Assembly: GCA_964016885.1 (NCBI GenBank)
Contig: OZ024741.1
Location: 183,272,001-183,336,000 of the forward strand
Direction of reading: 5' to 3'
Length of the DNA: 64,000 bases
DNA from: Eledone cirrhosa
Lineage: Eukaryota
The first letter of the stretch is position 1, and every line of letters begins with the position of its first letter. Positions 8,241 through 54,092 of the stretch are shown piece by piece. Position numbers and translations under genes: made by a program. A model generated the notes under the pieces. The model saw nothing but the letters and a program-made list of their open reading frames with translations, made no database searches and was not told where the DNA came from.

Positions 8241-11200
8241 TCCTCTCTCTACACACATGCACATATATCCTCATCACCATTTTCCGCTATTTTCCATGCT
8301 TGCATGCATTAGACAGGTTGTCACATTCTCTGGCTAGACAGGTCAAATGACTGATAATGTATGTGTATATGTGTATGTATGTATGTATGTATATTTGTGT
8401 GAATGAATGTATGTATGAACTATATATATATATATTATAAATATAATATATATATATAATGTATATATATATATATATATATATAAAGTGCTTGTGTAGG
8501 TGTCATGACAAAAATGCACCCAGCCCGCACTGTGAAGTGGCTGTATAGGTGTCACAACAAAAAGTACCCAGTATTTGCTGTAAATGTGGTTGGCATCAGG
8601 AAGGGCATCCAGCAGTAGACCTGAAGCCAACATCAGTTCTGTATGAGCAAGACATAGTCACCTAATCTGGCCTATCTCACAACAGGACAACTCGTCTAAC
8701 CCATGCTGACATTGAAAAATAGATGTTAAACAGTGATGATGATGTTGATAGTGTGTGTGTATAAATTAGGTTATGCATCTGAAATTTGGTTATATATCTG
8801 AAATACATAAGTATTTGCACATATTTTGAATCATCTATCCTGATTTTTAATTCTATTATCTCTATATCTCATCAAGTTGGCAGAATTGTTAGTGTCAGAT
8901 AAAATTATTTGTACTGTTCATTCTTACTCTCTCTCTGCACTTTGAGTTCAAATCCCACCAAAGTCAGCTATGACATTTGTTCTTTCAGAGTTGATAAATA
9001 AAGTACCAGTCCAGTATTAAAGTTGATTCTGTTTTAAGTGGTGAATTAGAAAAAATTAGGAAAGCATCAGACAAACTTTCTTGTGGTATTTGTTCTGGTT
9101 CTTTATATTTTGAGTTTAAATCCAGTTGAGCTCAGATTTCCATTTCATCCTCCCAGATGTCAATAAAATAAAGTGGTAGTCAATTGAATCTTCCCTTTCC
9201 ATCAGATTATTATTGTTATTGTTAGTGGTGAATTTGCAGTATCAGTAGAGAGTCAGACACCCTGCTTCGCCCTTTGCATTCTGAGTTCAAATCCCACCAA
9301 GGTTAGCTTTGCCGTTCATCCTTATAAAATAAAGCACTAATAATACACTGGGGTCAATTTAATCAACTTTCTCCTCTCCAAATATTGTTGGACTTGTGCC
9401 TAAATCAGAAACCATTATTATTTTTATTGATAGATTGGCAGAATCATTAGAGCATCAAACATAATGTCTCGCTGGATTGGCAGTATCGGTCGAGGGTCGG
9501 GCGCCATGCTTTCCAGCATAGTTACGTCCCTTTACGATCTGAGTTCAAATCCCGCCGAGGTTGACTTTGCCTTTCATCCTTACGGGGTCGATAAAATAAA
9601 GTACCAGTAATGCACTGGGTAATTGCTGGCCTTGTGCCTAAAGTAGAAACAATTATTTAATTATGGATCTTTATGTTCTGAGTTCAAATCTTGCTGTGAT
9701 CAACATTGCTTTTCATGCTTTTGGAGTTGATTAAATAAACTACCAAGATTGGAAGTTCAATATGTGATTAAAGGTCTACCAAATATAAACAAAATCTTTG
9801 AGTACATAGAAGCTACGAAAAAATTCAACAATAGAAACTTCTAGTTGTTTTACAACATCCCTTGTTTTCTATTTTCCTTTTCTTATGCATAATCTACCTT
9901 CCATTGGCTTTCAATATTTGAAATTTTTATTTTTATTTTTATTTTTATTTTTATTTTTATTTTTATTTTTACTTTTATTTTTATTTTTATTTTTATTTTT
10001 ATTTATTCAAAGTAATCCAACTTATTTTACAAACGGGATAAAAAAATATATTCTAGATACAGTCCCGCACTCCTTTATTATAGTTAAGATAGTGCTACTT
10101 AATTTGTGAATATTCAGTTGTTCTATAGCACAATCCAACCAGATGCCCCTGTTGTCAGACAAGTAACAGATATAAGGTCAATAGGCTCTTTTCTGTTACA
10201 AATTGCTGTCTATAAAGACTTATATAGATGAGTTTGAAACAGAAAAGAATTGTAAGCTCTATGACAGCAATTGAACCATGTATTTATTGCTTGCCAGACA
10301 ACTGTCTTACTGATTAGACTACAGAATTTCTGCTATTTTAATTTTTTTAATTTAAATTTCTTTTTTAATCATTTAGTCGGAGGAAGATGAACAGTACTCT
10401 TTACATTTTTAAGGACGATTGGAAGGAGAGATGTGTGTTGGACCTCCGTTGGTTGCAATGATGAGTGTTCCAGTTTTTTTTATTAACAAAACAGCCTGCT
10501 TGTGAAATTAACATGCAAGTGTATCCTTAAAGTAGTTCTCAGACACAAGATCTGACAAGGCTGGCCTCTTTGAATTGCAGGTACAACTCATATTTTCCAT
10601 CTAAGTTGACCGGAGCAATGTGAAATAGTATCTTGCTTAAGGACACAACAGCATGCCAGGAATTGAATTTACGACTTTATAATCATAAGCTGAACACCCT
10701 AACCACTAAGCTACATGGCTTCACAGAGGGAGAAAGCCAGGAAGTTAACCTGGCTAGAGACCTGATCCAAATGTTTCTCTAAAGGTGCACATGGACCAGG
10801 TGTTGACTCTGTTAAATGGAGTGATAGACTAAGTCTACCATTCAAAAATAAGAACACATCCTACAAATAATTTTCATACAGATTCCAGCCACCAAGTTTC
10901 ATTCACAAGACTTTGACTGACCCAAGGTGCTGTTCAGTGCGATTGAACCTATAACTATGCAGTCATATCTGACATTATATGATCTTCTGTTATGACAACC
11001 ACTCACCGTCGCCATCAGATTCTTTGTTAAGAATCTTCATTGCATCGTCAAAAATAATCCTCTAGACATTCTCTAACAGCTTTTGTCCAAGGCAAATACT
11101 ATCAGTTGTCTAATTCAAGATTCTATATCCTAATTACTTTTCTTCTATTTCTAATTATTCTCATTAATCCACTTATTATCCTGATGATTACCTTAATAAT

Positions 11201-11639: not shown

Positions 11640-13030
11640 TCTTCACCACCCTTAAACTGAACAGCATGTAATTAAAGTCCTAATTTTCATTCCAAATGCT
11701 TGACCCTGCTCTCATTGAGGATTTCTCATGGCAAACGTGCATCCTAACCATAGCTAGAACTGCACCTAAAAGACTGGCCCTTCTCTTCAGAGTCAGAAAA
11801 TACTTCAGCTTCAAAACAACTTCTGACCCTGTAAAAAGCTCAGGTAAGACCCATAATGGAGTACTGCTCATACATCTTGGAGAGTGTTGCTGCAACACAT
11901 ACAACTATCCTAAACCACATCTAGAAAAAGGCCATTCTTCTGATTGGCATTAAGTCACTGACAAACTCTGGCCTAAATTTCTACCATTACTACAGGGTGG
12001 TCCAAAAGTCTTGTCAGTCACCACCTACCAAAAAATAACAAGAAACAGTTTATGTTCTCATCGCAGTATCATCCTCTTCAGAGGAGCTGGTTTGCCGAAT
12101 CTTGCAGTGAAGTGATGTCACACATCCTCCATGCTCTTGCCAGAATGCACACGATCATGTGTCCATACACTTGCAAGCAGCTTCTCATCCAAACTGTAGG
12201 AGCTCTGAAATATAAAATTATATTATTATTACTGAGTTCAAATCCCGCCGAGGTTGACTTTGCCTTTCATCCTTACGGGGTCGATAAAATAAAGTACCAG
12301 TAATGCACTGGGGTAATTGCTGGCCTTGTGCCAAAAGTAGAAACAATTATTATTATATATTATAGAGTTCAAATCCCGCCGAGGTTAACTTTGCCTTTCA
12401 TCCTTACAGGGTCAATAAAATAAAGTACCAGTAATGCACTGGGGTAATTGCTGGCCTTGTGCCAAAAGTAGAAACAATTATTATATATTATAATTAATGA
12501 TATTATATATTATATCATTAAAACAAAAAATAATTGTTTCTACTTTTGGCACAAGACCAGCAATTACCCAGTACATTACTGGTACTTTATTTTATTGACC
12601 CCGTAAGGATGAAAGGCAAAGTTAACCTCGGCGGGATTTGAACTCAGACGTAACTATGCTAGAAAACATGGCGTCCAATCCTCTACCGATACTGCCAATT
12701 CACCGCCCTAAAAACATTAAAACAAAAATAATGAAAGTTAAAACAATATGTGACAAGACTTTCAGACTACCCTGTACAATGATATTTGCTTCTTGAATCT
12801 GGCTGACCTCATTCCACCTTCACTCAAGTGCTCCCACCTCACTTGTCTCTCCTTCTCTCATCATACATATTGTGTCTAACACTTCAGGTTCTGCACTAAC
12901 CATTATGCCTAATCCTTAGAATATTGTCCCTCTGAAATTCTTTCCCTTCACATATATTTTATACAGGAGTTGATCTGCAACAATTTAAATTGAACATCAA
13001 CAGTTTCAATTTCATCTGTCTTAGAGGGCT
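11640..13030 (+). mobile_element. Decayed L2/Jockey/CR1-group LINE 3' region, interrupted by a Tc1-type element
   Basis: Remnants SWQTCILTIARTAPKRLALLFRVRKYF and FYHYY|NDIC, which is continuous across the insertion. Confidence 0.55.
11993..12774 (-). mobile_element. Internally deleted Tc1/mariner-superfamily element containing three SINEs
   Basis: 24-bp TIRs cagggtggtccaaaagtcttgtca / tgacaagactttcagactaccctg, TA on both sides. The - strand carries an N-terminal HTH-like remnant YSLDEKLL...FTARFGKPAPLKRMILR*EHKLF. Confidence 0.8.
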
Positions 13031-27199: not shown

Positions 27200-27242
27200 G
27201 TCAAAGCTCTTTCATCACACATTCTGTGACCTCTTCAGTGAC
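27200..27242 (-). ncRNA. Minimal hammerhead ribozyme (family of the 52 kb palindrome)
   Basis: Reverse complement reads GUCA CUGAAGA G GUCACA GAAUG UGUGAU GAAA GAGC UU|UGAC. Confidence 0.7.
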
Positions 27243-50124: not shown

Positions 50125-50994
50125 CGAGGTATGTCAGAAAAGTTCCAGGACTGATGTCACAAAAGATTTATTTCAAACCCAAACTTCACACTAACCGTTT
50201 TTCTCCTTCAAAGTAATCCCCCTGGAGTATGTAACTGTAATCTTAGCTCTCTACAGCGATCAAACATTTTTCTTCATAATTTTATATACATGTCCTCTGT
50301 TTCAGGTCGTCAAGCAATGAGCACAGAGCAACGAATAAACTTGAAGTTTCTGGTACGGTTGGGGAAAACTCTATCAGAAGCACTGGGATTGCTGCAGCAA
50401 GTGTATGGAGATGAGATGATGTCACGCTCACGTGTTTTTGAGTGGTGCAGAAGGCCCTCAACAACCAGGACTGAGGTCAACGTTGAGCGCGTCAGGCAGA
50501 TGGTGCGTAGCGATCGTCGGCTGACTGTTTGACTGATGGCAAATGAGCTGGGCATGAATCGGGACAGCGTCTGGAAGATTCTCACTGAAGATTTGGACAT
50601 GTGGAAAGTCTGCGCAAAGATGGTGCCAAAACTGCTGAACGATGACCAGAAGGGTCGACGCATGTAGGTGTGCCAGGACATCCTCGAACGTCTTGAAACC
50701 GAACCAGACTTGCTAGGGACAGTCATCACCGGTGATGAGTCATGGATCTTCGAGTACGACCCAGAGGGGACCCGTTTTGAAGATGTGGACGACATCAAAA
50801 AGGCCGTGACGACGGAACTGCAGAGGATCCCGGAAGAATCCTTCCAGGAGTGCATGCAAGCATGGCAGAAAAGGATGGAAAAGTGCATTAGACTCCAGGG
50901 GGATTACTTTGAAGGAGAAAACTCTTAGTGTGAAGTTTGGGTTTGAAATAAATCTTTTGTGACATCAGTCCTGGAACTTTTCTGACACACCTCG
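50125..50994 (+). mobile_element. Internally deleted mariner element
   Basis: 70-bp TIRs (extendable to ~104 bp) with TA flanks. HTH EQRINLKFLVRLGKT and ITGDESWIFEYDPE fused directly to GTRFEDVDDIKK, so the catalytic core is deleted. Confidence 0.92.
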
Positions 50995-52003: not shown

Positions 52004-52227
52004 CGTTTCTGAATTTGTTTAGCAAGATTCTTTATCTGAAATCGTGTGTTGAAACCGATATTGTTATACTTTGGGAGGGTCATGTTGCCAATAAGAAACA
52101 CATGCACCAGTTGCTTTCACTTCAATTTATTATATATTTATAAATTTATAAATTTACAAATCTACAAATTTATAAATTTCTGGTTGGTTGGTTGGTTGGT
52201 TCCACAACCAGATAGTTGTTTATATAT

Positions 52228-52272
52228 AGTCATAGTCCTTTCGTCACACACTCTGTGACCTCTTCAGTGACT
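52228..52272 (-). ncRNA. Minimal hammerhead ribozyme, left arm of palindrome
   Basis: Reverse complement reads AGUCA CUGAAGA G GUCACA GAGUG UGUGAC GAAA GGAC UA|UGACU. Confidence 0.75.
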
Positions 52273-52690
52273 GGGGATTCCTTTCTTTGTTTCTGTGCCT
52301 TTCCTTTCTTCTGTCCTACGCCATTTTGTTTATGTGTGTGTGTTATGTGCTCAGTTTGCGCATGCGCCACATCCGGGTGTCTGTGTGTGTTTGTGTTCAT
52401 TTATCTATTTGTTTATTTATTTACATGTTATTGGTTGGTTGTTTGTTCTATGTGTGTGTTTTCATTTTGTCCTTAATTGTAATTAAGGACAAAATGAAAA
52501 CACACACACACATAGAACAAACAACCAACCAATAACATGTAAATAAATAAACAAATAGATAAATGAACACAAACACACACAGACACCCGGATGTGGCGCA
52601 TGCGCAAACTGAGCACACAACACACACACAGAAACAAAATGGCGTAGGACAGAAGAAAGGAAAGGCACAGAAACAAAGAAAGGAATCCCC

Positions 52691-52735
52691 AGTCACTGAA
52701 GAGGTCACAGAGTGTATGACGAAAGGACTATGACT
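52691..52735 (+). ncRNA. Minimal hammerhead ribozyme, right arm of palindrome
   Basis: AGUCA CUGAAGA G GUCACA GAGUG UAUGAC GAAA GGAC UA|UGACU, with one stem II mismatch. Confidence 0.72.
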
Positions 52736-52915
52736 ATATATAAACAACTATCTGGTTGTGGAACCAACCAACCAACCAACCAGAAATTTATAAATCTGTA
52801 GATTTGTAAATTTATAAATTTATAAATATAATAAATTGAAGTGAAAGCAACTGGTGCGTGTGTTTCTTATTGGCAACATGACCCTCCCAAAGTATAACAA
52901 TATATATATATATAT

Positions 52916-53458
52916 ATAAAAACAAATAACGAAACGAAATTAAATTTCGTTTCGTTTGTAACTCACTTTTGTATGACTGACGCTTAAACAATTAAGTTAA
53001 AAATGTACATCCACATATGTATACTGAAATACTAGTATGCATATGAATACACACATGTGTACATATGTAGATGTACCGAGTTTTTCACTGGACACTTTAC
53101 TGTGAGTGTCCAGCTATTCTGTATGTAAACACACAGACAAACCGGTTTTTAGAGTCATACTGGTTTTCGAGGAAACACCTTTCCTCTATTCTCCAGAAAG
53201 CCAGACAAGGAATATTGGACAAGTTTCGATGTTGTTACATCTCATCAGCAATATTTACCTATCTTCCGGCCCCTCTAGAGAATCGTAAAAGCACATATCG
53301 TTATATGCTTTTTCTATGAAAATTAGTAGTGGGCAGACTAATTTGCATAGAGCGTGAGTATGTACCGGTTCAGCGGAGACGATAAAAACAAATAACGAAA
53401 CGAAATTAAATTTCGTTTCGTTTGTAACTCACTTTTGTATGACTGACGCTTAAACAAT
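52916..53458 (-). mobile_element. Non-coding hammerhead-bearing element with 77-bp terminal direct repeat (retrozyme-like or non-autonomous Penelope-like)
   Basis: 52916-52992 is repeated exactly at 53382-53458 (period 466). One intact internal hammerhead. Both ends abut (TA)n. Confidence 0.7.
53211..53255 (-). ncRNA. Minimal type I hammerhead ribozyme, intact
   Basis: Reverse complement reads AAUAUUG CUGAUGA GAUGU AACA ACAUC GAAAC UU GUC|CAAUAUU. Perfect 7-bp stem I, 5-bp stem II, 2-bp stem III and a GUC triplet. Confidence 0.88.
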
Positions 53459-53509
53459 ATATTTATTTATATATATATATATATTTATTTATATATATAT
53501 ATATTTATT

Positions 53510-53757
<248 letters not shown>

Positions 53758-54039: not shown

Positions 54040-54092
54040 ATTTTATTATACATATTTCAGAGGTACAACAGTACGTCCTCATCAGACAAAAT
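54040..54092 (-). ncRNA. Type I hammerhead ribozyme (related to 585-650)
   Basis: Reverse complement reads AUUUUGU CUGAUGA GGAC GUAC UGUU GUAC CUCU GAA AUAUGUAU A|AUAAAAU. Confidence 0.78.

Follow-up and report, generated by a model that had tools for sequence, protein, structure and literature searches.

The locus studied here raises the question of how a short repeat, carrying one hammerhead ribozyme and ending in a partial second copy of itself, came to be written into a (TA)n tract. It lies in the window, that is, the whole stretch of 64,000 nucleotides of the Eledone cirrhosa genome analysed here, and was taken in a first-pass annotation for a candidate retrozyme copied from a circular RNA, with a partial tandem Penelope pseudo-LTR (pLTR) as the alternative. 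On the whole, we hold with good confidence that the 466-nt repeat is a non-LTR retrozyme, likely inserted by a Penelope-like reverse transcriptase (RT)-endonuclease whose template was probably an RNA circle formed by self-cleavage and religation. The class itself, that of metazoan non-LTR retrozymes, is already known, and the useful part is the anatomy of the insertions.

The window copy and its family

The features of the window copy are collected in Table 1. The basic description of the locus stands: the terminal repeat is exact over its 77 bp and extendable on neither side, the hairpin is part of it, (TA)n adjoins both ends of the copy, and no credible ORF is seen, the longest ATG ORF in a natural arm of three units having 50 aa.

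Table 1. Features of the 466-nt repeat copy, in window positions
Feature	Position	Strand	Remark
Single-arm insertion, 1.17 units of the 466-nt repeat	52916..53458	- (hammerhead/RNA-sense strand)	RNA 3' end at 52916
77-bp repeat, copy 1	52916..52992		Starts at family initiation site 1 (unit position 1)
77-bp repeat, copy 2	53382..53458		Second-round start; stop at unit position 77, AT microhomology with the TA tract
"Tail" between the two initiation sites, 69-74 nt	52916..52990	-	Site 2 = unit positions 70 and 75 (window 52985, 52990)
13-bp hairpin within the tail, between the two sites	52928..52956		Seen in the sequence and in fold predictions
(TA)n target tract, site-1 end	52900..52915		Sequence reading
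TA-rich target tract, inner end	53459..53609		Sequence reading
Type I hammerhead, short stem/loop III	53211..53255	-	Predicted cut between 53218 and 53217
Rare variant base disrupting the palindromic stem/loop III of other copies	53221..53221	-	Alignment and duplex prediction

The repeat was then sought in the genome assembly, which is 3.0 Gb in size, AT-rich and microsatellite-rich. A DNA search with the unit, in which 40 of 489 candidates were scored, gave 174 matches, and among the 150 listed the identity to the window is 96-100%, mostly in tandem with a 466-nt period and on many chromosomes. The ORF-less hammerhead repeat of retrozyme type in dispersed tandem arrays, which the annotation had led one to expect, is thus seen. 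Counts by exact motif, all being lower bounds and all with none in the reversed control, give at least 6,322 unit-to-unit junctions genome-wide, at least 2,045 (TA)n junctions at unit position 1 and at least 1,061 at unit position 70, the last figure covering the position-70 form of site 2 without the position-75 form. In addition, a 32-nt hammerhead motif of one variant occurs 1,627 times in the genome while its reversed control occurs 0 times, showing that the hammerhead is not a chance match. The 466-nt repeat is a large young non-coding family, present at more than 2,000 genomic places. The unit is also present in all four of four sequencing runs (of unspecified kind), and in one run with another organism label it appears as a closed contig of 496 nt, a form in which a tandem array would look identical.

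Below we report on 157 loci, sampled by DNA match, hammerhead match, site-1 end and the site-70 and junction lists, plus the window. They include the 31 best DNA matches, 28 of the 29 loci among the first 100 hammerhead matches on C1 (the 29th being already in the sample), 80 consecutive new site-1 ends on C1, with one dropped as overlapping a sampled locus, and 18 extra loci taken from the lists of site-70 ends and unit junctions. For the subfamilies, identity to the window unit is 89-100%. A sister family, with a length of about 480-510 nt, has 62% identity to the unit over 418 aligned bases and is likewise tandem and ORF-less, with the same hammerhead plan; it is found at L133:7679-10000, L059:3405-4561, L106 and L041:4278-5511. 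Its cleavage triplet is GUA, and it contains an internal (TA)n whose length varies. In an alignment of about 90 loci, the window copy differs from most loci in five columns, two of them CpG-type, which places it outside the youngest group. Its identical terminal repeats had been read as the sign of a recent insertion; at about 1% divergence, 77 matching bases are hardly informative on age. Taken alone, the window copy is an ordinary and slightly decayed family member.

As for its surroundings, the copy sits in the TA tract at the end of a head-to-head palindrome (52058-52903) of a second hammerhead-bearing repeat of 420 nt, with hammerhead motifs at 52696-52730 (+), 52233-52267 (-) and also 27204-27238 (-). 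This repeat has matches in 29 of 230 stretches compared, often single or palindromic, and no tandem arrays of it were seen there. Another hammerhead family, the third, lies at 54047-54085 (-); its loop III is palindromic and it has relatives at five other compared loci, and several further hammerhead families occur in the flanks of the loci examined. The short palindrome centred on the TA tract at 53609-53755, unique among the compared loci, may have arisen as a side effect of this Penelope-type insertion or of another one, a reading that follows from one locus (L163) where a retrozyme arm is followed by an inverted copy of its own target flank. Elsewhere in the window, broken reading frames are found at 50155-50928, which we take to resemble a mariner-type transposase, and a weak tRNA-like Rfam match of 34.4 bits at 10262-10323 (-) is probably a SINE head; the repeat at 12216-12488 is presumably an octopus SINE.

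Anatomy of the insertions

The outer ends of the arms are fixed. They meet (TA)n either at unit position 1 (site 1) or within positions 69-78, nearly always 70 or 75 (site 2), with 30 ends at position 70, 29 at 75 and 5 elsewhere in this range. Among the first 99 loci, all 71 two-armed ones are head-to-head and none is tail-to-tail. Where both ends are canonical, site 1 is paired with site 2 in 63, 27 and 11 loci across three locus sets, which is 101 of 102; one event, present in duplicate as L161 and L162, is counted twice among the 63, and 8 and 2 two-armed loci of the first two sets are excluded for a cut-off or non-canonical end. The same pairing holds in 41 of 41 two-ended loci not selected by an end motif. 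The sole exception is a site2+site2 insertion (L240), chosen from a list because it resembled that type, and no site1+site1 locus is found in the sample. At one locus (L243:8268-8773) the site-2 end adjoins (ATG)n instead of (TA)n, showing that other microsatellites are occasionally targeted.

The inner ends behave differently from the outer ones. In 224 arms they are spread across the whole unit (KS p = 0.064), with a mild excess at unit 33-99, a range that includes the end of the window copy itself and in which alignments can be blurred by the hairpin. The arms have a median length of 651 nt, 151 of the 224 exceed one unit, and the longest reaches 30.7 units; one locus (L251) has no arm above threshold. 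The circularly permuted start points proposed as a check on the circular-RNA model are therefore not the pattern observed, near-random positions being seen for the inner ends alone. With fixed outer ends and near-random inner ends, the 77-bp redundancy is no special terminal structure, as it had been thought to be, and 77 is merely where this arm stopped: the window copy is the one-armed case, started at site 1 and halted 77 bases into round two. The 13-bp hairpin of the tail is likely part of the signal recognised by the inserting protein.

This anatomy bears on the possibility that the repeat is a satellite spread by a DNA route, such as extrachromosomal circles or Helitron-like rolling circles, with the hammerhead as a passenger. 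Higher-order periods do show DNA-level recombination in older arrays, yet two fixed start sites used one each, together with random inner ends, are hard to place in such a scheme, the anatomy equals that of a co-resident RT element (family D, below), and the RNA structure is strand-specific with covariation. We regard spread by DNA as very improbable.

The anatomy bears equally on whether the unit is the pLTR of an unfound autonomous Penelope, the window copy being a 5'-truncated partial tandem. Such pLTRs, too, have a tail, arms placed head-to-head, a TA target and a hammerhead with a short stem III, according to the available text of PMC8557442, PMC3846280 and PMC4209133. Copies with fixed ends attached to a long Penelope ORF had been named as what a plain pLTR fragment would look like; the outer ends are indeed fixed, but in none of the 80 loci chosen by their site-1 end does a Penelope ORF follow the arm in its own direction, all 80 being unit-on-unit arrays or stopping inside the unit. 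No parent pLTR was matched in 30 GIY-YIG loci (3.3 kb), 12 long-ORF loci and 20 family D loci, and the unit matches in these 62 GIY-YIG/family D loci are separate insertions only. The search covered five Penelope families, with 150 scored of 10,596 GIY-YIG candidates, a scope that leaves this reading some room. Against it stand also the arms of up to the length given above and the sister family, which at 62% identity is ORF-less and tandem too. We consider it improbable that the unit is such a pLTR; it may have descended from one. One candidate, a 5.9-kb copy pair enclosing an RT ORF (L119), was rejected, as the ORF scores LINE-type, has no GIY-YIG match and lies inside a larger inverted duplication.

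The hammerhead and the template

The annotation had described a perfect minimal hammerhead on the minus strand. The type I hammerhead is confirmed, with a stem I of 7 bp (53249-53255 with 53211-53217), a CUGAUGA core, a 5-bp stem II, GAAA, a 4-nt stem/loop III and GUC, but it is atypical of the family: loop III reads CUUG in the window and palindromic CUAG in 90 of 90 other loci, and the exact 45-mer of the window is found at just one other genomic place. This hammerhead has no Rfam match at the gathering threshold. The catalytic core is nearly invariant in about 90 loci. Across seven natural variants, taken from the subfamilies and the 62% sister family, both partners have changed in 6 of the 14 hammerhead pairs, and the pairing cells amount to 95.9%, far above slid controls; the seven are mutually related, and the covariation is to be read as support and not as a probability. 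Such compensatory changes support the ribozyme fold.

In fold predictions the 466-nt unit has z = -10.7. When eight natural monomers are folded as circles, the hammerhead strand is stabler than its complement by 14-40 kcal/mol in all eight, stem II is predicted to form at 0.86-1.0, and stem I is predicted to be strong in five, middling in one and weak in two. The common stem/loop III is a 6-nt palindrome with a predicted duplex of -4.8 kcal/mol, whereas in the window variant the palindrome is lost and the predicted duplex is +0.3. Hammerheads with a palindromic stem/loop III are of a type reported to cleave as dimers, as far as the consulted parts of PMC4209133 and PMC7229834 go. With this palindrome lost and a single cleavage site, the window copy is probably a dead end, and would be unable to free a unit-length RNA alone.

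Which RNA was copied can be approached from the arrays. The 224 arms pass the cleavage site 459 times, no indel occurs at unit 301-307 in 549 units, inner ends near the cleavage site number 6 against 7.7 expected, and one insertion carries 7+13 identical units. The seamless passage, the lack of stops at this site and the 20 identical units favour the circle, and we think it rather probable, judging from the arrays, that a ligated circle would be the main template. Linear cleaved monomers joined by end-to-end jumps are disfavoured, as neither indels nor stops mark the cleavage site. In addition, 23 fixed haplotypes are found among 35 long arrays, and 8 of them have fixed variants that no other array of the sample shares, which speaks for a passage by way of a single unit and renewed expansion; the perfectly uniform arrays may partly be an effect of assembly polishing.

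Penelope-driven insertion could instead have had as its template the transcript of an array already in place, a multimer left linear and uncut, with no circle, the uniform arrays then coming from uniform sources or from DNA-level expansion. Some arrays have unit variants common to both arms or recurring with a period of 2-7, the shared variants being in register at 8 loci and off register at 7, with one locus showing both, a split from which it does not follow that the two arms were read from a single molecule. These variants suggest oligomeric templates or later DNA recombination, a pure monomer circle being insufficient, and they suit the linear multimer. So do the short median arm and three loci (L102, L111 and L159) where the shared variant is confined to the outermost unit; priming on the last unit at the 3' end of a read-through transcript would give this pattern. 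Moreover, in the accessible text of PMC11167929, Poseidon inserts in vitro without hammerhead cleavage and uncut RNA is its main substrate, and in that of bioRxiv 10.64898/2026.07.22.740005, 8 of 9 Xenopus dimers are without cleavage and 1 of 9 is cleaved in vitro. However, a linear multimer can neither lengthen arrays nor fix a variant in every unit, yet the haplotypes are fixed across the long arrays and one insertion repeats a single unit throughout. The core and stems are conserved with covariation, so that cleavage seems important to the lineage, and no run-off pile-up is seen at any unit position save for the mild excess described above. On this balance insertion from an uncut multimer appears rather unlikely to us. 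Long arms with higher-order periods of 2-7 units occur at L241 and L138 (G000:C1:5737300-5753251), L112, L104 and L032, and may represent the start of satellite-like evolution from single insertions.

The inserting enzyme and related systems

A one-ended tail on head-to-head arms is the signature of endonuclease-bearing Penelope-like elements in the text seen of PMC8557442 and PMC3846280. For Poseidon of Anolis, the portion of PMC11167929 at hand describes the tail as the stretch between two internal RT start sites, and the protein, a predicted dimer, as nicking and extending both strands of AT-rich DNA. The insertions of the unit match this Penelope-mobilised pattern, with two start sites bounding a tail, a one-ended tail and an AT-rich target (101/102). 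We are thus highly confident that the unit is inserted by a Penelope-like RT-endonuclease, being a Penelope-mobilised retrozyme, and Penelope, which had been put forward as an alternative explanation, is better seen as the probable source of the enzyme than as a competing reading.

At least five Penelope families with RT and GIY-YIG are present in the genome. Among them, family D is autonomous, with RT and GIY-YIG and many loci of equal protein score, and young, with a median nucleotide divergence of 0.33% and 22 of 253 pairs identical over 1.5 kb. It inserts head-to-head in (TA)n and has two sites of its own; among 20 loci, 13 have both ends visible, and in all 13 each of the two sites is used once. 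A Cx4CxxC motif lies ahead of its GIY-YIG domain, as is described for Neptune and Nematis in the consulted text of PMC8557442. Seamless joins, without a TA gap, of the retrozyme into the 3' part of family D are found at L152 (95% to D) and L173 (99%), and at L059 the retrozyme stands head-to-head with the sister family, also in a seamless join. All three fit template switching within one insertion, while the joins to family D may also have arisen when the retrozyme inserted into or beside an older copy of D, with deletion; they occur in 2 of 157 loci and in none of the last 58. No sequence is shared by the unit with family D or with four other Penelope families examined. Family D as the partner enzyme is therefore a lead that we hold tentatively.

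The coding structure of family D is an observation in its own right. In L180 (G000:C18:6374500-6384499, minus strand) and L181-L198, a first ORF of 436 aa overlaps the RT-endonuclease frame of 784 aa, which lies in the -1 frame relative to it. A U-UUU-UUA heptamer stands in the first-ORF frame in 17 of the 18 copies covering the region, and no structure is predicted downstream of the heptamer. A programmed -1 frameshift and a splice acceptor are candidate readings of the overlap. Canonical Penelope elements are described as single-ORF.

The proposed course of events would be as follows. Arrays would be transcribed, adjacent hammerheads would cut as dimers through the palindromic loop III, and a host ligase would close monomers and some oligomers. 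A dimeric Penelope protein would then nick both strands of (TA)n and begin synthesis around the 13-bp hairpin, with site 1 serving one strand and site 2 the other. Synthesis of a cDNA would go on for 0.1 to more than 10 rounds, and the two inner ends would be joined through microhomology. The window copy would be a one-armed outcome, with 1.17 rounds from site 1 rejoined to the TA tract. A bolder version, doubtful as a whole, is that the ribozyme circle hijacks an active Penelope enzyme by shape alone, both RTs circling one ring: the dimer would bind a single ring at the 13-bp hairpin, prime the two cut (TA)n strands to the left and right of this hairpin and write head-to-head arms of up to tens of units. 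On this reading the more than 2,000 genomic places would be such events, and family D would be a helper still active and twice captured together with the retrozyme in one insertion.

Compared with known systems, the family agrees with the sequence-level definition of metazoan non-LTR retrozymes in the parts consulted of PMC7229834 and bioRxiv 10.64898/2026.07.22.740005. It has a type I hammerhead per unit, tandem arrays and neither coding capacity nor an LTR-bounded internal region, and its RNA is predicted to be highly self-paired and able to form the hammerhead. The window 1.17-mer with its one hammerhead is not "active" under the two-hammerhead criterion of Li et al. (bioRxiv 10.64898/2026.07.22.740005, text available). 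The retrozymes of this Xenopus study have units of 51-972 bp with a proposed origin from pLTRs, and in its accessible text they often match pLTRs (21 Repbase matches), whereas no pLTR homologue is found here in five families; pLTR homology is a proposed origin of retrozymes and lies outside their original definition. For described metazoan retrozymes circular RNA has been shown, as stated in the sources seen, while the present family is known from DNA sequence alone. Two-armed head-to-head arrays with two fixed sites and a (TA)n target are observed here and are not described in the text consulted of these retrozyme papers. The literature searched, with subscription papers mostly outside it, contains neither the 466-nt family nor two-site, two-armed retrozyme arrays; figure S9 of PMC7229834 and the preprint supplements may bear on this. 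The plant LTR retrozymes carry type III hammerheads in two LTRs, unlike the type I topology here.

With EN+ Penelope-like elements, going by the consulted text of PMC8557442, PMC3846280 and PMC11167929, the unit has in common the AT-rich/(TA)n target, head-to-head arms, one-ended tail, two start sites and variable 5' truncation. It differs from them in having no RT/GIY-YIG ORF, and hence not the RT and GIY-YIG ORF between pLTRs of an autonomous Penelope, in a tail of 69-74 nt against 30-40, and in arms made of many 466-nt units. The non-autonomous Chlamys elements such as MRC1 share the Penelope dependence and the multicopy head-to-tail insertions; unlike the unit, they have a 3' end similar to that of their autonomous partner and belong to a clade without canonical hammerheads (PMC8557442, in the part available). 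The very short stem III and palindromic loop are shared with the minimal hammerheads of amphibian satellite-2 type and of Penelope, which work as dimers in the text at hand of PMC4209133 and PMC7229834; here as there, a single motif would be weak and tandem motifs would pair. The schistosome minimal hammerheads, as far as these sources describe them, have an extra unpaired base and a long stem II, while the main family here is without both.

The movement of animal retrozymes through Penelope enzymes that copy RNA circles is a standing hypothesis, based on co-occurrence and pLTR likeness in the text seen of PMC7229834 and bioRxiv 10.64898/2026.07.22.740005, the latter listing the mobilisation mechanism as open. 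In the present family the footprint of insertion can be read directly. It is left by thousands of very young events, for which the start sites are exact and for which there is a candidate hairpin for recognition and, as candidate helper, a young Penelope family. The formation of Penelope tails and inverted arms is concerned as well, as a short non-coding template shows the rule of one site per end cleanly. If the reading by shape alone is true, rolling-circle target-primed reverse transcription could be rebuilt in vitro.
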